64,000 bases of DNA. It comes from a bacterium (GTDB lineage: Bacteria > Bacillota > Clostridia > Oscillospirales > Acutalibacteraceae). Position 1 is the stretch's first letter. Each line of letters starts with the position of its first letter. Location: positions 283-64,282 of the forward strand of contig CAVGWP010000001.1 in NCBI GenBank assembly GCA_963633095.1, given 5' to 3'. Under the pieces are notes generated by a model. That model had not been told where the DNA came from. It saw only the letters and a list, made by a program, of their open reading frames with translations, and did not search any database. A program made the translations under genes and the position numbers. This document shows positions 2,484-35,410 of the stretch, piece after piece.

Positions 2484-4871
2484 ATGAAAAGAAGAACCTC
2501 AAAACTTCTTGCTTTTATTCTCTCTGCCTGCGTGCTGATGAGTATGTTCTCAGTAATGGGAGTGCTTTCTTCATCGGCTGACAGCTACGGCAGCGAGACT
2601 CTCTTCAAGTTTTCCCCGGAAAGCGTCGGAGAGGGAAGCGCGATCGGCAGTCTTTCCTATACGGATGACGGTACACTTACCCTCACCAGCGACGGCGAAC
2701 CTCAGGACTATGCAAAGGGCGAATACATAAAGCAGGCGTTTTCTATCGGCAATTCCGAAGCAGCTATCGCAGCTGTTCAGGCAAACCGTGCTGAGAACCG
2801 TATTGCAACCGATGTCACTCTTTCGACCTGCACCTGCATCTTCGAGTTCAGCGACAACCCTGTTAAATCGGTTGAAGTTCAGCTCATGCTTTACGGTAAA
2901 GATGCATCGGGCAACCAGCTCGTCACAAAGACCTCTGCTTACATGAAAGAGGGCGACACAAGAACAGTTATTTTCGACATTCCCGAGAAAATGGTCTCTG
3001 CCGATACACTTGTTATCTGCTTCGAGAACAATATCTCCGGTATGAACGATACCGCTAAGAAAGACTGCGGCCCGAAGGATATTGTCGCAGACTTCTCATC
3101 CCTCAAGCTCTACACCGTTGAAAACGGCGTTGCTTCCTCGACTGCTGCTGCAGGCTGTGTCTACGACTGGTCGGAAACAGACGCTTATGCAATGCTCGGT
3201 TCGGGTCCGCTGATCCGTGACGCAGGCGTTCAGTTTAAGCATGATGCTGCCTCTTTCTATCCGGTCGGCGCTATGAACATTGCCAGCGACGAAAGCTATG
3301 TTAAGTTCCATCCGACTGAGTGGCAGTGGGAAGATACCGGTATCAAGGTATATCCTAAGGAAGGCGCTTTCAAGGGATACGACGGCATGAGCATGTATGT
3401 TCTTGTTGACAAGGACGAGCAGTTCATTAAGTGGGATTATCCGGATTATTCGATAGCTCCGTTCTCGATGACTATTCAGTGTGCAGTTCCTTCCCGCGAT
3501 GAGGACGGTAACTTCCTCAATGAGGACGAAGAAATTGTCGATACAATGGAAGAAGCTTACGTTGATATTGCTTACTTCAAGATCAATGAGATCGGCGTTT
3601 CCAACGATAAATACACAGCAACTACAACTAATGCGATCACAGCAGGCACACCGTATAAGCTTGATGTTAACTTCTCATCGCTTGCTCAGACAACACCGTG
3701 GCCGCAGATCGACCTTTGGGAGTGGGATTCGCTCGGCGATGACTATCCGGACGGTACAAAGCTTTCCGATCACATCAGCCTTATCTCGCTCGGCCGTGCA
3801 ACAATGGCTAACGATTGCTATGTGAACTACACAGTTTCGGATATCTACGGTATGAACAACGGCGTTTCAACTCTGCCGGAGATCACACCTGTTCCGACAA
3901 CTACAACAACAACTACCACTACTACAACCACAACCACAACCACTACTACCACTACAACAACTCAGCCGACAACAACAACTACCACTACTACCACAACTGC
4001 TCCGACAACTACCACAACGACTAATCCCGATCCGGTAGGCACTAAAGAAGCTATCCTTTCGTTCGACACAACCGGCAGAAACTATACAGACTGCTGGGGC
4101 ATGGCTACAAAGTGGTCAGGCGGTACATCCAACGGCAACGGAGCAAATATGAAGAACGGTCTTGTTTCTTCCGCAGACGGCAACCTCATCATTTCAACTC
4201 CGAACGGTTCTACTGCTTATATGATCCAGCAGCAGCTTTGGGGCGATCAGAGTAAAAACGCTCAGAATGCTTATAAGAAAGCCGTCGCAGCTCTCGGTAG
4301 CGACACGACCGGCAAGAAACTTCAGTTCACTGTGACCAACAACTCGACTTCAAATCCGCTTAAGTTTGGCTTCAAGCTGACTTGCCCGGGAGATGTCGGC
4401 GTGTTCAACTACAACACCAACGAAACACAGTTTATTGTTAAAAGCGGCGAGACAAAGGAAATCACACTCGAGCTTCCGGAAGGAAAGACATTCCCTGAAA
4501 CAATGACCAGCGGCACAGATACTTATAATGCCGCTCTCAGCCTTGAATTTAATGCCGTTTCGCTGAGCACGGATGAGTCCGGTTGGACAAACGGCGACAT
4601 CAATGTTGCTGTAAGCCCGATCTATCTCGTATCCGGTGAAGCTCCCGAAACAACTACAACCACCACAACAACTGCTAAGCCGTCCGCTCTTTCCGGCGAC
4701 GCTAACAATGACGGTGTTGTAAATGTTCTCGACCTTATCAGAATCAAGAGATACATTGCGGATAAATCGATTGATATCAACACTGAGAATGCTGATATCA
4801 ACGGCGACGGTGCTGTAAATGCGATCGATGTTTACGCACTTCTCGACAGACTCTGCGATCCTTCTAAATAA
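2484..4871 (+). CDS. Secreted multi-domain dockerin-containing (cellulosome-type) protein, catalytic/binding domains unassigned
   Basis: Signal peptide MKRRTSKLLAFILSACVLMSMFSVMGVLSSSADS. There are two long poly-Thr linkers. The C-terminal type-I dockerin has two Ca-binding segments (GDANNDGVVNVLDLIRIKRYI and ADINGDGAVNAIDVYALLDRL). Confidence 0.9.
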   Translation: MKRRTSKLLAFILSACVLMSMFSVMGVLSSSADSYGSETLFKFSPESVGEGSAIGSLSYTDDGTLTLTSDGEPQDYAKGEYIKQAFSIGNSEAAIAAVQANRAENRIATDVTLSTCTCIFEFSDNPVKSVEVQLMLYGKDASGNQLVTKTSAYMKEGDTRTVIFDIPEKMVSADTLVICFENNISGMNDTAKKDCGPKDIVADFSSLKLYTVENGVASSTAAAGCVYDWSETDAYAMLGSGPLIRDAGVQFKHDAASFYPVGAMNIASDESYVKFHPTEWQWEDTGIKVYPKEGAFKGYDGMSMYVLVDKDEQFIKWDYPDYSIAPFSMTIQCAVPSRDEDGNFLNEDEEIVDTMEEAYVDIAYFKINEIGVSNDKYTATTTNAITAGTPYKLDVNFSSLAQTTPWPQIDLWEWDSLGDDYPDGTKLSDHISLISLGRATMANDCYVNYTVSDIYGMNNGVSTLPEITPVPTTTTTTTTTTTTTTTTTTTTTTQPTTTTTTTTTTAPTTTTTTNPDPVGTKEAILSFDTTGRNYTDCWGMATKWSGGTSNGNGANMKNGLVSSADGNLIISTPNGSTAYMIQQQLWGDQSKNAQNAYKKAVAALGSDTTGKKLQFTVTNNSTSNPLKFGFKLTCPGDVGVFNYNTNETQFIVKSGETKEITLELPEGKTFPETMTSGTDTYNAALSLEFNAVSLSTDESGWTNGDINVAVSPIYLVSGEAPETTTTTTTTAKPSALSGDANNDGVVNVLDLIRIKRYIADKSIDINTENADINGDGAVNAIDVYALLDRLCDPSK

Positions 4872-5585: not shown

Positions 5586-5733
5586 TTTTATTTGTCCTTT
5601 CGGTTTTGCTACACTACAATTTTACCATAACAATGAGTGTAATTTATGAATAAATTGTGAACACAAAGCTTTGTAATTATGCTTTTCTTTTCTTTAAAAC
5701 TGTGATAAAATATTCTTGTAGCTGAAAACCGAG

Positions 5734-6255
5734 GTGATCCGATTGAACGATTTTGACAGCATGCTTCACATAGTCACAGAGCAGGCAATCGAGCTCGGCA
5801 TACCCGTGCCGAGCAATATTTCTCCGCACATTGTGCCGAACAGCCGAGCTGTCAAGCGGTTTGGGCTGTGCAGGAAAACAGGCTCGGTGTATGTGATCGA
5901 GCTTGCCTCAAGGTTAGCTTTCGCACCGCGCACCGCCTGCATGACAACTATTGCCCACGAACTGCTCCATACCTGTCCGGGCTGTGATAATCACGGTGCG
6001 CAGTGGAAACAATATGCCGCCCTGATGAACTCTGCTTACGGCTATAATATCAGCCGAACATCGTCCTGCGAGGCACTCGGTGTTGACGATATATCCAAGG
6101 CAAAATATACGCTTGTTTGCCAAAACTGCGGCAGTGAGATCAAAAGGGAACGAATGTGTCCGCTTGTGAAACGCCCTCAGAGATACCGCTGTAAATGCGG
6201 CGGCAAGCTGAAACTTTTGAAAAATCAGTCCGATCTGCTTGAAAATCGGAGATAA
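5734..6255 (+). CDS. SprT-like zinc metallopeptidase-domain protein
   Basis: HELLH zinc motif plus a C-terminal Cys4 ribbon (CQNCG...CKCGG). The true start may be TTG 5743, 5 nt after AGGTGA. Confidence 0.7.
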   Translation: MIRLNDFDSMLHIVTEQAIELGIPVPSNISPHIVPNSRAVKRFGLCRKTGSVYVIELASRLAFAPRTACMTTIAHELLHTCPGCDNHGAQWKQYAALMNSAYGYNISRTSSCEALGVDDISKAKYTLVCQNCGSEIKRERMCPLVKRPQRYRCKCGGKLKLLKNQSDLLENRR

Positions 6256-6297
6256 AGATGTTAAAATCAAAATAGATTAAAAAAGGAGCTTAAAATT

Positions 6298-6807
6298 ATG
6301 GAGAAAAAAGTTGCACAACTCATCAATGACCAGATAAACAAGGAGCTTTATTCGGCTTATCTTTACCTCGATTTCGCAAATTTTTATGCCGACGCAGGGC
6401 TTGACGGCTTTGAGAATTGGTACACGATCCAGGCTCAGGAAGAGCGCGACCATGCAATGCTTTTCTACAAGTATCTGCACAATAACGATGAAAAGGTAAC
6501 ACTTGAAGCGATAGCGAAGCCCGATGTCGAGCTGACAGATAATATGTCGCCGCTCAAAGCAGGACTTAAGCATGAGCAGTATGTCACAAGCCTTATCAAC
6601 GATATCTATGCGGCAGCTTTTGAATCAAGGGATTTTCGCACAATGCAGCTGCTCGATTGGTTTGTTAAGGAGCAGGGCGAAGAGGAGAAAAACGCCGCCG
6701 ACCTTATCACCAAAATGGAGCTCTACGGTTCGGACGCTAAGGGACTTTATATGCTCAACAGCGAGCTCGGCGCCCGTGTCTATACCGCTCCGTCGCTTGT
6801 TCTTTAA
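6298..6807 (+). CDS. ftnA: Non-heme ferritin
   Basis: 169 aa. The ferroxidase-centre pattern (ELYSAYLYL...QEERDHA...EQ) is typical of bacterial Ftn. RBS AAAGGAG. Confidence 0.9.
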   Translation: MEKKVAQLINDQINKELYSAYLYLDFANFYADAGLDGFENWYTIQAQEERDHAMLFYKYLHNNDEKVTLEAIAKPDVELTDNMSPLKAGLKHEQYVTSLINDIYAAAFESRDFRTMQLLDWFVKEQGEEEKNAADLITKMELYGSDAKGLYMLNSELGARVYTAPSLVL

Positions 6808-14236: not shown

Positions 14237-14497
14237 ATAGTAAAAAGACTGCGAACGAAAGAAGTAGCCCGATAACCGCATCCAAAGAGAGCCGGCGGCA
14301 GGTGTGAGCCGGTGAGCGTTTCGGGGGAAATACATTCGGGAGTCTGCTCGGTGAATAAAGTAGCCGCGCACGGGATCGCCCGTTACAGCGAGGCGGGATC
14401 GCTTTTGCCGTCCCGAATGAGATGCCGCGTCTGCGGCAACTGAGGTGGTACCGCGATAATTCGCCCTCTGCATTTTGCAGAGGGCTTTTATGTTTTT
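14237..14497 (+). promoter_or_regulatory. T-box leader (tyrosine specifier) with terminator/antiterminator
   Basis: AGAGA box at about 14286. The specifier-loop context GAAA-UAC-A places the Tyr codon at 14331-14333. The conserved T-box sequence TGAGGTGGTACCGCG is at 14441-14455. The terminator GCCCTCTGCA...TGCAGAGGGC plus TTTT is at 14463-14497. Confidence 0.9.
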
Positions 14498-17376: not shown

Positions 17377-17384
17377 GAAAATGA

Positions 17385-17482
17385 ACTGAATAGGGGTGCT
17401 GGTGCAAGCCGGCTGAGATCGAGCGTAATGCCGCTCGGGACCCATATAACCTGATACGGATAATGCCGGCGTAGGAATTGAT
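17385..17482 (+). promoter_or_regulatory. TPP (THI-box) riboswitch
   Basis: The conserved blocks GGGGTGC, GCTGAGA, ACCC, AACCTGATACGGATAATGCCGGCGTAGGAA appear in canonical order. Confidence 0.93.
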
Positions 17483-17490
17483 TTGATCTT

Positions 17491-17524
17491 AAACGAGCGG
17501 ACATTTTCTCCGCTCGTTTTTTTG
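17491..17524 (+). terminator. Riboswitch expression-platform terminator
   Basis: AAACGAGCGGA and TCCGCTCGTTT pair perfectly, followed by TTTTT, directly after the aptamer. Confidence 0.85.
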
Positions 17525-32969: not shown

Positions 32970-33923
32970 TTACCATTTGATAAGGCAGGCGCCGTTTGAA
33001 AGGCCGCCGCCGAACGCGCACATAATAATAAGGTCGCCTTTTTCGAGCTTGTGCCCGCGGTTTATCTCGTCCAGTGCGATCGGGATAGACGCACTCGATG
33101 TGTTGCCGTAGCGATCGATATTAAGGCAGAACTTTTCATGCGGAATACCGAGCCTTTTCGCCGCAAAATCGATAATGCGCGAGTTTGCCTGATGCGGTAC
33201 GATATATTTGATATCGTCTTTGGTAAGACCGTTGTTCTGCAGCAGATAGTTTATATCGTTGCAAATTGCATTGACCGCGTATTTGAAGGTCTCCTGTCCC
33301 TGCATGTGGATATACGGCGTGTCCTGCTCGACAGTGTAAAACGGCGAGCAGCCTATCGCGTGCGGAATGTTTATAACATCGTTGCCGCCGTGGACGGTCA
33401 GAGTCGAGTCGAGATAACCGTCGCCTGCGGTGAGCACAGCTGCGCCGGCACCGTCGCCGAAGATAATGCAGGTCGAGCGGTCGGTCCAGTCCACAATGCC
33501 CGAAAGGCGTTCCGCACCTACAACAAGCACATTTTTAACCTTGCCTCTCGCAAAAAAACCAGCGGCTGTTTCAAGCAAAAACAGAAAAGCAGAACAAGCT
33601 GCATTGACTTCATAAGCACAGCATTCAGCACCGATCTTTTGCTGGATCATGCATGCGACCGAGGGCGATACCGATTCGCCGCTGACGGTGGACGCGATGA
33701 TAAGATCGAGGTCGTCAACTGTGATTCCGGCGTTTTCAATAGCTCTCATTGCGGCTTTTGCGCCGAGGTCAGAGGTGTTCTCGTCGGTGCAGACTCTGCG
33801 CTGTGCAATGCCGACTCTCTGGCGTATCCATTCGTCGTTTGTTTCGACCATTGTGGAAAGTTCATCGTTTGTGACAATTCTCTCGGGAACATACATACCT
33901 GTTCCGATAATGCGAAAACTCAT
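32970..33923 (-). CDS. fabH: Beta-ketoacyl-ACP synthase III
   Basis: 317 aa with the Cys-His-Asn contexts (NAACSAF, VPHQANSRI, GNTSSASIP). Confidence 0.95.
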   Translation of the reverse strand: MSFRIIGTGMYVPERIVTNDELSTMVETNDEWIRQRVGIAQRRVCTDENTSDLGAKAAMRAIENAGITVDDLDLIIASTVSGESVSPSVACMIQQKIGAECCAYEVNAACSAFLFLLETAAGFFARGKVKNVLVVGAERLSGIVDWTDRSTCIIFGDGAGAAVLTAGDGYLDSTLTVHGGNDVINIPHAIGCSPFYTVEQDTPYIHMQGQETFKYAVNAICNDINYLLQNNGLTKDDIKYIVPHQANSRIIDFAAKRLGIPHEKFCLNIDRYGNTSSASIPIALDEINRGHKLEKGDLIIMCAFGGGLSNGACLIKW

Positions 33924-34039
33924 TTTTATCGTCCTTTCAAAAAGCGGCTGAAACTCTTGCAGTTATTGTGCCGCTGCCGTGCCAAAAGTATCCTACATAA
34001 GATTAGTGTCGCCCGATATTGAAAAGTTACAAAAAATCG

Positions 34040-34067
34040 TTGAAAAAATTTTTAAATGCGTTATAAT
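34040..34067 (+). promoter_or_regulatory. Near-consensus sigma-A promoter firing into the 0.85-kb non-coding tract
   Basis: TTGAAA, 16-nt spacer, TATAAT. It is divergent from fabH, and no ORF with an RBS follows until 34904. Confidence 0.55.
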
Positions 34068-34118
34068 CTTAAGTGCAGATACATATTGCCATCGGCAATA
34101 TGCATTTCGGAATTGCCG
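34065..34118 (+). repeat. Direct repeat family 1, copy 1 (54 nt)
   Basis: AATCTTAAGTGCAGATACATATTGCCATCGGCAATATGCATTTCGGAATTGCCG. It is 54/54 identical to 34218-34271 and contains the palindrome ACATATTGCC-ATC-GGCAATATGC. Confidence 0.95.
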
Positions 34119-34217
34119 GAAGCAATTCCGACGGGAGCTGTCGCTCCCTCCTGCACAGCTTGCAATCTGTCGCAGGCTTTGCTCCTTGCAAGCAAAGCAA
34201 AGCCTTGCTCCGATTTA

Positions 34218-34271
34218 AATCTTAAGTGCAGATACATATTGCCATCGGCAATATGCATTTCGGAATTGCCG
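34218..34271 (+). repeat. Direct repeat family 1, copy 2 (54 nt)
   Basis: Identical to 34065-34118, with a 153-nt period. Confidence 0.95.
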
Positions 34272-34341
34272 ACCATTGCCATGGTGGGCAGGACGCGGGA
34301 AGCTTGTGCAGTGGGTAGCCTTTTGTACCCGACCAGTAGTT

Positions 34342-34414
34342 GGGTTCTTGTCGAGCATTAAAGGTTAGTAAATATGATAGCCGACCACGGCAGAGCAACT
34401 TTGTTGCCCCGACA
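34342..34414 (+). repeat. Direct repeat family 2, copy A (about 73 nt)
   Basis: GGTTCTTGTCGAGCATTAAAGGTT...AGCCGACCACGGCAGAGCAACTTTGTTGCCCCGACA. The 36-nt core (34379-34414) is identical to 34748-34783. Weaker similarity extends about 40 nt upstream (34304-34343 versus 34671-34715). Confidence 0.9.
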
Positions 34415-34715
34415 TTCGGCTATGCACAGAAAAGGCTCCCTAGTGTAAAGGGTTACTCCCCACGGTGCGGGGAGATGTCACGAAGTGACAGAGGGGACGG
34501 GCTCCGGTACACAGCTGTCAGCGACAGCTGACTGAGGGATTGTTATATAGTTGTCATATTGTATGACAACCCCTCCGAGACTTATTTGACAACCCCTCCG
34601 TCAAAACCTTGTTTTGCCACCTCCCCTTACACAGGGGAGGCTTTGCAGCACAGCTGCTTTGACGCGGAGAGTTTGTGCGGTGGGATACATACTATGCCCG
34701 ACAAACGGTAATCCG

Positions 34716-34783
34716 AATGTCGAGCATTTAAAGTTAAACAATATGGCAGCCGACCACGGCAGAGCAACTTTGTTGCCCCGACA
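34716..34783 (+). repeat. Direct repeat family 2, copy B
   Basis: GAATGTCGAGCATTTAAAGTT...AGCCGACCACGGCAGAGCAACTTTGTTGCCCCGACA. Confidence 0.9.
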
Positions 34784-34790
34784 AGAAGAT

Positions 34791-34860
34791 AGGTTCTTGT
34801 CGAGCATTGAAAGTTGGATAAGATGATATCCGACCACGGCATAGCAACTTCGTTGCCGGC
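34791..34860 (+). repeat. Direct repeat family 2, copy C (diverged)
   Basis: AGGTTCTTGTCGAGCATTGAAAGTT...CCGACCACGGCATAGCAACTTCGTTGCCGGC, in tandem with copy B. Confidence 0.85.
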
Positions 34861-34903
34861 ATAGCAGCTTTGCTGCAAATTTGAGAGGAAAGCGAGGAAT
34901 GAA

Positions 34904-35410
34904 ATGATCAGATTTGAAGAAATATACGAACAGAATTTCAACGGCATTTGGTCGTTTTTCATGAAGCTTTGTTCAGATAGAAACTTATCCGAGGAGCTGA
35001 CTCAGGAGACATTTTTCAGAGCATACACCTCGCTTGAAAGATACCGCGGCGACAGCAGCGTGTTCACATGGCTTGCGGCGATAGCGAAGAATGTCTGGTT
35101 TTCACACCTGAGAAAAAGGAGGCTCTCAGCCGACAGTATGTCAGTTGATTCGGTAATCGAGCTGTGGGGCGGCGAGCGCGTCTCGCCGGAGGACAGCTTT
35201 ATCAAAGAAGAAACAGCGGCGGCTGTGCGCGAATGGATAGCCGCAATGCCGAAAAAGTACCGCGATGTCGTGGTGCTGAGAATATATGCGGGTCTGCCGT
35301 TTCGGCAGGTCGCAAAAGCAATGAATATAAACGAAAATTCCGCAAAGGTTTTGTATTTCAGAGCGAAGAATATTTTAAAAGAGAGGATTGAAAGGGAAAA
35401 TGAAATGTAA
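34904..35410 (+). CDS. ECF-type RNA polymerase sigma factor
   Basis: 168 aa with region 2 (LSEELTQETFFRAY...FTWLAAIAKN) and region 4 (YRDVVVLRIYAGLPFRQVAKAMNINENSAKVLYFRAK). Confidence 0.9.
   Translation: MIRFEEIYEQNFNGIWSFFMKLCSDRNLSEELTQETFFRAYTSLERYRGDSSVFTWLAAIAKNVWFSHLRKRRLSADSMSVDSVIELWGGERVSPEDSFIKEETAAAVREWIAAMPKKYRDVVVLRIYAGLPFRQVAKAMNINENSAKVLYFRAKNILKERIERENEM

Follow-up and report, generated by a model that had tools for sequence, protein, structure and literature searches.

A probable mosaic of small palindromic repeat modules upstream of an extracytoplasmic function sigma factor gene in a lineage of Acutalibacteraceae

The DNA considered here is a stretch of 64,000 nucleotides (nt) from a bacterium of the Acutalibacteraceae (GenBank assembly GCA_963633095.1, contig CAVGWP010000001.1, positions 283 to 64,282), hereafter the window, and within it the intergenic tract between fabH (32970-33923, minus strand) and a gene for an extracytoplasmic function (ECF) sigma factor (34904-35410, plus strand), which lie 980 nt apart. 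We conclude that this tract is most probably a mosaic of small non-coding palindromic repeat modules, similar to BOX elements, bacterial interspersed mosaic elements (BIMEs) or miniature transposable elements with inverted repeats (MITEs), which lies between the promoter and the start of the sigma factor gene in this lineage. Tracts of this category are known, but two of the repeat families found here appear to be undescribed, with no match in Rfam and none in the literature for their sequences.

A first-pass annotation of the window had depicted the gap between fabH and the sigma gene as promoter-driven, non-coding and rich in repeats and hairpins. These features are present, at a density far above chance. 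The promoter that it called near-consensus, TTGAAA-16-TATAAT at 34040-34067 on the plus strand, agrees with the consensus at 11 of 12 positions, and its statement that the tract holds no credible open reading frame (ORF) stands, since none of the eight ORFs encountered has a Pfam match. Both the 54-nt repeat, in two identical copies (34065-34118 and 34218-34271), and the double occurrence of TGACAACCCCTCCG, at 34564 and 34587, were confirmed. The repeat said to be present three times was recovered as an 81-nt unit (34328-34408, 34697-34777 and 34777-34857; 77-84% identity to the reference copy); however, the identical 36-nt core assigned to all three holds for copies 1 and 2 only, copy 3 having two mismatches in a 28-nt core and diverging after GTTGCC. 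Similarly, all seven hairpins listed as perfect are where they had been placed, but that at 34456-34474 consists of six perfect pairs, an A.C mismatch and one further pair. The tract also holds smaller repeats, with four copies of a 20-nt hairpin unit and two of a 19-nt repeat, and none of the three repeat families has a further copy elsewhere in the window.

In 813 nt of the tract, perfect hairpins with 6 bp or more number 13 when counted as distinct. Counted as raw stem/loop records these amount to 24, whereas 308 other 813-nt windows of the same sequence average 2.4 records (maximum 10) and 200 dinucleotide shuffles average 1.4 (maximum 6). In comparison with shuffled sequences, the folding of either strand is far more favourable (plus strand, z = -6.8; minus strand, z = -11) because the tract is palindromic, and its folding energy neither tells which strand matters nor points to an RNA. 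Taken together, the repeat and fold analyses divide the tract into blocks, each of which closes upon itself, as follows.

34073-34156, unstranded: module M1, with perfect hairpins at 34082-34102, 34107-34131 and 34133-34148 inside a GTGCAG/CTGCAC closing stem.
34157-34271, unstranded: module M2, with a GCTTTGC/GCAAAGC hairpin at 34176-34198, followed by the second identical 54-nt copy at 34218-34271.
34272-34432, plus strand: D1 element A (D1-A), with head CCATTGCCATGGTGGGCAGGACGCGGGAAGCTTGTGCAG.., one body unit at 34328-34408 and tail CCCCGACATTCGGCTATGCACAGAAAA.
34433-34541, plus strand: long unit of the five-hairpin family, from AGGCTCCC to GAGGGATT (nhmmer E = 4e-26).
34452-34508, plus strand: core of about 60 nt inside the five-hairpin unit, GTTACTCCCCACGGTGCGGGGAGATGTCACGAAGTGACAGAGGGGACGG..
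34542-34641, plus strand: spacer and terminal module, with a spacer hairpin at 34550-34570, two AACCCCTCCG copies and a terminal hairpin at 34620-34640.
34642-34880, plus strand: D1 element B/C (D1-B/C), with head, tandem bodies at 34697-34777 and 34777-34857 and, in addition, a hairpin repeat of 20 nt at 34857-34876.

M1 holds most of the first 54-nt copy, and the second copy, in M2, is a truncated version of the left part of M1 and stops exactly where D1-A begins. The AACCCCTCCG copies occupy 34568-34577 and 34591-34600, the terminal hairpin reads CCTCCCC-TTACACA-GGGGAGG, and D1-B/C is closed by a 23-nt stem in which 34642-34664 pairs with 34857-34879. Closing stems of this kind, which resemble terminal inverted repeats, are present in the modules of the window.

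Comparison with orthologous loci indicates that about 815 nt were added after the TATAAT in this lineage only. Among bacterial assemblies sampled at one genome per species, relatives of the sigma factor reach at most 51% identity, and most of them are also divergent from fabH, with a gap of only 150-250 nt. Closer relatives, at 98%, 82% and 74% identity, were provided by a protein search. First, the two loci with the 74% relative (L105 and L106) keep the divergent fabH/sigma arrangement with a gap of 163 nt, which aligns to 33985-34067 of the window through ..TCCTACAT.AAGATTAGT..GAAArGTTACAAAAAA..TTGAAw-N17-TATAAT, and their start codon comes about 33 nt after the TATAAT. Second, the leader of the 82% relative measures 76 nt and stands in a different context. 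Third, the tract is absent from both of these and from about 25 more distant orthologous loci, leaders being roughly 30-100 nt long. In the window, the shared TATAAT is instead followed immediately by about 815 nt of repeat modules (34068-34880) and then by a 23-nt ribosome-binding stretch. The features that flank the insertion are these.

34003-34031, minus strand: TGTAAC-N17-CACTAA motif facing fabH, outside the inserted tract and kept in orthologous fabH/sigma gaps.
34040-34067, plus strand: sigma-A-type promoter TTGAAA-16-TATAAT, found also in L105 (74% relative) and unchanged in L227 (98% strain).
34881-34903, plus strand: ribosome-binding region of the sigma gene, unstructured, with a GAGG Shine-Dalgarno sequence at 34894-34897 and the ATG at 34904.

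The 98% strain is represented by independent assemblies from another sample, and their contigs bear on the integrity of the tract. One of them (L227) reaches 172 nt into the gap from the side of fabH and ends within a repeat, in the loop of the first palindrome, another (L103) reaches 58 nt from the sigma gene, and a 100% contig (L001) reaches 92 nt from the same side. Both junctions of the tract are real, because they are reproduced in these independent contigs, all of which end inside the fabH/sigma gap, where repeats are expected to break assemblies. An assembly artefact could be suspected given that perfect 54-nt and 36-nt repeats are prone to misassembly and that short-read contigs break in the tract; yet the reproduced junctions speak against it, and against a decayed gene there is, besides the lack of Pfam matches, the result of a six-frame chimera of the tract (M1/M2/M3/M5), which found no match at E <= 10 among 5.8 billion protein clusters. 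We therefore consider either of these explanations extremely improbable, and the searches for a decayed gene, a possibility that the first-pass annotation had raised, revealed no residual protein similarity.

Of about 36 repeat positions in the leader, 5 differ between the 98% strain and the window; a compensatory pair in one stem accounts for two of these changes, and one further change renders perfect the palindrome at 34079-34105 in M1, which has 12-bp arms. The 23 nt from 34881 to 34903, including the Shine-Dalgarno sequence, are identical in both strains and unpaired in the predicted fold. These data need to be weighed with respect to the first of three readings offered by the first-pass annotation, namely, that the tract is a long structured 5′ leader dedicated to the control of the ECF sigma operon, be it riboswitch-, antiterminator- or thermosensor-like. 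The position of the tract between the only good promoter and the sigma gene, its extreme folding energy and the preservation of hairpins by compensatory changes in the 98% strain would fit such a device. However, neither the 74% and 82% relatives nor any of the more distant orthologous loci has the tract, two of its blocks are dispersed repeats that occur beside unrelated genes in either orientation, as described below, no terminator/anti-terminator pair is found, the Shine-Dalgarno sequence is not sequestered and no Rfam family matches. Being neither conserved upstream of orthologues nor fixed in orientation and position, the tract lacks the marks of a cis-acting leader, and we regard a dedicated device as highly improbable.

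What the blocks are instead is best seen for the composite 34433-34641, in which a five-hairpin unit, the spacer and the terminal hairpin are complete. The tract matched five 'Bacteriophage sp.' contigs from human faeces in a blastn search of phage records (best E = 1e-23), and a degenerate 30-nt pattern of the core occurs in 16 IMG/VR contigs and in more than 120 metagenome stretches, which is a lower bound. A profile built from 74 units found elsewhere recovers the window copy at 34433-34541 with nhmmer E = 4e-26, without a second copy in the window, and 184 copies in 1.85 Mb of fetched loci. On these matches, 34433-34541 counts as a complete member of a dispersed family, widespread in gut Clostridia and their phages. 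The consensus of the unit is aGGCTCCCTTGtAAAGGG-TGAyTCCCCrC.GT.GyGGGGAr-A-TGTCrCG.AGyGACA-rAGGGGAC-hairpin-hairpin-TGAGGGATT. Two of its stems show clean compensatory changes (CG to UA, or the reverse, in 9 of 34 sequences, and GC to AU, or the reverse, in 11 of 34 and in 7 of 34), and the others vary in length and sequence with pairing kept. Units exist in a long form and in a short form that lacks the core of about 60 nt, and they can be arranged in tandem with a period of 117-119 nt. The AT-rich spacer and terminal module (AATCCCTCCGG..CCACCTCCCTTTACAAGGGAGGC) lies downstream of the unit in 20 of 67 non-redundant cases, which is the order found in the window, and upstream in nine. With respect to flanking ORFs the copies show no bias in orientation (classes of 22, 17, 14 and 12), no gene family recurs beside them, and 50 of 155 clusters are at contig ends. 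Ten loci carrying the unit gave only tRNAs when compared with Rfam, and the pattern of the terminal hairpin found zero matches in viral contigs.

A palindromic family of its own, (C)GTAGGGGCGG..CCGCCC(C), often flanks five-hairpin units (L082, L083, L116, L181 and L225); it bears the GTAG tag that is typical of repetitive extragenic palindromes (REPs) mobilised by REP-associated tyrosine transposases (RAYTs).

The core of the five-hairpin unit also occurs alone elsewhere, including inside phage and bacterial ORFs, with the form GTGAyTCCCCrC..GyGGGGAr-A-TGTCrC..GyGACA-rAGGGGAC followed by a variable third hairpin. A phage C5-methyltransferase ORF of 582 amino acids (aa), present in the near-identical IMG/VR contigs L087-L102 (for example, L097, 816-2562), reads through the core as ..GDSPQCGEMSRSDRGDG... 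About 150 nt upstream of this in-frame copy, at the palindrome CTGGGG-AGTG-CCCCAG, there is a second site, which is empty in L092, L097 and L100, filled by a related element in the forward direction in L089 and L102, and filled in reverse in L087, L090, L091, L094, L095 and L099. Both filled states split the methyltransferase ORF. Because one and the same site is empty, forward or reverse in near-identical contigs, this comparison shows that the core is mobile. A holin-like ORF and two further ORFs also read through copies of the core, which is open in four of six frames, and in several loci it sits in the loop of another palindrome. Flanks complementary over 6 nt or more accompany 20% of copies of the core versus 9% of controls, and that hairpin loops would be its target as a general rule is weakly supported. 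Rickettsia palindromic elements (RPEs) and the small dispersed repeats of cyanobacteria are likewise tiny palindromes that insert in coding sequences while keeping the frame open, and that nest in one another. The core resembles them in its open frames and in being read through in the methyltransferase, the holin-like ORF and others; it differs in that this behaviour within genes is seen at other loci and not in the window. We know of no sequence similarity between the core and these repeats.

In a Ruminococcus metagenome-assembled genome (L036, 5460-5663), 205 nt of GTAG-tagged, REP-like hairpins lie between the orthologous sigma and anti-sigma genes, which abut in the window, and a copy of the core is nested in the loop of one of these tagged hairpins.

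The second reading of the first-pass annotation, one or more independent structured or multi-copy small RNAs with the repeat units as their genes, can be weighed against these data. Conserved and covarying hairpins over hundreds of copies of the five-hairpin unit, together with the constant order of modules in tandem arrays, would agree with it. However, the only promoter-like sites in the region of the tract are that at 34040-34067 and one overlapping the sigma start codon, no terminator-like site exists on the plus strand anywhere in the tract, and therefore no unit possesses a promoter and terminator pair of its own, as expected of a small RNA gene. Furthermore, copies occur in either orientation relative to their neighbours, some are inside ORFs and one phage gene is split, and many lie at contig ends, as is usual for DNA repeats present in high copy number. 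Small RNA genes are thus a very unlikely explanation. The first-pass annotation had itself taken repeat units scattered over many unrelated loci as an argument against an RNA, and such a scatter is what was found.

The three-copy repeat gave rise to a further family, which we term D1. Scans of genome, viral and metagenome collections with the exact pattern of its core yielded zero matches, a misleading result because relatives of D1 are only 70-88% identical. These relatives were found by translating the open minus-strand frame of 34643-34882 (80 aa) and comparing it with 1.84 billion representative proteins. Three of the five matches were genuine repeat proteins (WD40-like and similar) and were discarded; the other two, the only genuine relatives of the frame, are short 'proteins' that represent translated repeat DNA on contigs unrelated to the locus of the window. 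D1 copies thus number 3 in the window, 12 in the first of these contigs (L228) and 3 in the second (L229), in both orientations. L228, which carries rubrerythrin, secA, degV and dnaA, has three intergenic gaps of 647, 474 and 942 nt filled by D1 on both strands, and one of its arrays abuts the ribosome-binding site of degV as the array in the window abuts that of the sigma gene. L229 has the same junction between a D1 tail and a five-hairpin unit as the window, with 86% identity over 159 nt. In addition, a 67-nt piece of L229 (258-323), 94% identical to 34513-34579 of the window and comprising the last hairpin, GAGGGATT, the spacer hairpin and AACCCCTCCG, is inverted relative to the adjoining core, which suggests an inversion between the inverted repeats of the element.

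D1 consists of a head, CCATTGCCATGGrGGGCAGGACGCGGGrAGtTTGTGCGG..CCCGAC-hairpin-GTCGAGC, a body in 1-6 tandem copies, GTCGAGCATT.AAAGTT.GATAA.ATGATA.CCGACCACGGCA.AGCAAC.., and a tail, CCCCGACATTCGGyyrTGyrCA.AAAA. The D1-rich loci gave nothing credible with Rfam. As judged from these copies, D1 is a second dispersed modular family, narrower than the five-hairpin family. The D1-filled gaps of L228 are at 997-1643, 4383-4856 and 5727-6668; some 940 nt of D1-type repeats lie directly upstream of dnaA, where the replication origin is expected.

Searches for known RNAs agree with this picture. With Rfam 15 at gathering score the tract has no match, the first-pass annotation having likewise recognised no RNA class by eye, and under permissive settings the best hit is a eukaryotic small nucleolar RNA at E = 0.17, above the limit of E < 0.1; 12 related loci yielded nothing with gathering or permissive E-values. 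The only Rfam families matched in the window at gathering score, both outside the tract and on the plus strand, are a T-box leader at 14242-14471 (126.9 bits) and a thiamine pyrophosphate (TPP) riboswitch at 17382-17493 (66.9 bits).

The third reading of the first-pass annotation, a local pile-up of intergenic repeats, is the one that these results support, because two of the three repeat-bearing blocks are members of families with copies at numerous unrelated loci. These are the five-hairpin/core family and D1, whereas M1/M2 gave no match. Presence versus absence can be followed both at the phage methyltransferase site and for the whole tract, which this lineage has and L105 lacks. A build of the BOX type is apparent in the five-hairpin family, in the D1 arrays and in the closing stems of the window modules. 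By contrast, the GTAG or CGTC tag of REPs in the strict sense flanks none of the 13 perfect hairpins of the tract.

Neither the phage, plasmid and viral collections nor the fetched loci nor the protein search gave a match for M1 and M2 (34068-34271, with the 54-nt repeat), and for M1 none is found outside this species: the pattern of the 54-nt palindrome found zero matches in viral contigs, nhmmer searches of their pieces against 0.87 Mb of loci found nothing, and blastn of the tract against plasmids gave chance matches only. A further rival explanation is a cluster of sites acting at the DNA level, be it REP-like sites for nucleoid proteins or gyrase, or repressor operators for the divergent fabH and sigma promoters. 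Many perfect palindromes do lie directly 3′ of the promoter, including that with 12-bp arms at 34079-34105, perfect in the 98% strain, and REP-type elements are known to bind such proteins. However, no binding protein is identifiable, the palindromes are all different in sequence and the relatives lack them, which makes sites of this kind very doubtful as the reason for the tract.

The closest known systems are alike in build. BOX elements of Streptococcus pneumoniae and S. suis have the structure boxA-boxB(n)-boxC (Croucher et al. 2011, PMC3049150), and the families described here share with them a modular plan, in which tandem middle units in variable number are set between a head and a tail and the ends can pair, so that the whole element folds on itself. 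The likeness extends to an intergenic location, clustered copies, nesting with other repeats and, probably, co-transcription with neighbouring genes, as well as to open frames, which allow some copies to sit in ORFs. The comparison concerns build and behaviour, and we do not claim that our families are members of the BOX elements by sequence. Moreover, our families are hosted by uncultured gut Clostridia and by phages of these; each unit is in itself a succession of 3-5 short perfect hairpins, and in one family a 60-nt core can be separated from the rest and occurs by itself. REP/BIME clusters of Proteobacteria, made of GTAG- or CGTC-tagged palindromes and associated with RAYT transposases, have been reviewed together with their proposed roles (Di Nocera et al. 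2013, PMC3733652). They too form intergenic mosaics of short GC-rich palindromes with some copies inside genes, and whatever role they may have is ascribed to RNA hairpins or to the binding of proteins; unlike them, the hairpins of the window are untagged, GTAG-tagged hairpins adjoining the core in other loci only (L036 and L225). Finally, MITEs can be shared between prokaryotes and their viruses (PMC11602168), as is the five-hairpin/core family between bacterial contigs and IMG/VR or 'Bacteriophage sp.' contigs, although two classical hallmarks of MITEs, an unambiguous target-site duplication and terminal inverted repeats like those of a known insertion sequence, are not established for this family.

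In the mechanism that we propose for the repeat mosaic, insertions and local duplications would have gathered modules head-to-tail in the space that separates the sigma-A promoter from the ribosome-binding site of the sigma gene. They may move and multiply at the DNA level through hairpin-forming intermediates, with a mobilising enzyme that would act in trans and be encoded elsewhere. Since there is a promoter upstream and no terminator within, the tract is probably co-transcribed as a long 5′ untranslated region (UTR); starting from TTGAAA-16-TATAAT, this UTR would be about 830 nt long and rich in hairpins, with the Shine-Dalgarno sequence left free. Any effect on expression of the sigma factor, through mRNA stability or RNase cleavage, would then be incidental, with no dedicated switch.

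Several points weigh against this interpretation. First, it is only by their form and position that M1 and M2, the first 200 nt, would count as repeat elements. Second, no recurrent transposase or parent element was found near the copies among 300 clustered ORFs, those nearest to copies, out of 356 non-redundant neighbours, and the target-site duplication at the empty and filled methyltransferase site is ambiguous. Third, hairpins that are kept by compensatory changes between copies and strains would also fit a selected RNA structure. Fourth, we infer transcription through the tract, and the copy counts for the chromosome of the host itself cover the 64-kb window.

A variant of the preferred reading may also be entertained, in which the core is a distinct mini mobile element that, with its carriers, has been exapted as a functional RNA or DNA module, the pile-up at the sigma gene tuning its expression. 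Such an element may be non-coding, land either way at the same palindromic target and nest in hairpins, and it may serve, for instance, as a protector of mRNA ends or as a recombination site. No description of the core sequence, or of MITEs of gut Clostridia, was found in the literature, and we consider this exaptation rather unlikely.

The surroundings of the tract deserve some observations of their own. On the minus strand fabH is the first gene of a fab operon, whereas the ECF sigma gene is followed in its operon by genes for a zf-HC2-type anti-sigma factor, a 221-aa protein of unknown function and two HI0933-like flavoproteins. These genes are contiguous in the window; in L105 they are split by PfkB kinase and aldolase genes on the opposite strand (2529-4194), between the anti-sigma gene and that for an unknown protein of 225 aa. 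The TGTAAC-N17-(T/C)ACTAA motif faces fabH in nearly all orthologous fabH/sigma gaps (L002-L027, L104 and L105), and in many orthologous loci a second copy faces the sigma gene itself; in the sub-lineage of the window the sigma-facing promoter is of the sigma-A type instead. From this sequence pattern the motif looks like the own promoter of the ECF sigma factor, in which case the fab operon would belong to its regulon.

The analysis thus defines two modular repeat families of uncultured gut Clostridia that seem to be undescribed, one of them common to phages and tolerated in genes. The phage-shared family could serve as a marker linking phages to hosts, and it could also be a source of assembly breaks in gut metagenomes. 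For the discovery of RNAs these families carry a warning, as extreme folding energy, perfect hairpins and even compensatory changes can stem from dispersed palindromic repeats and not just from regulatory RNA. For the sigma operon itself, the replacement of a leader of about 30 nt, as in relatives, by one of about 830 nt that is rich in hairpins may alter mRNA stability or translation.

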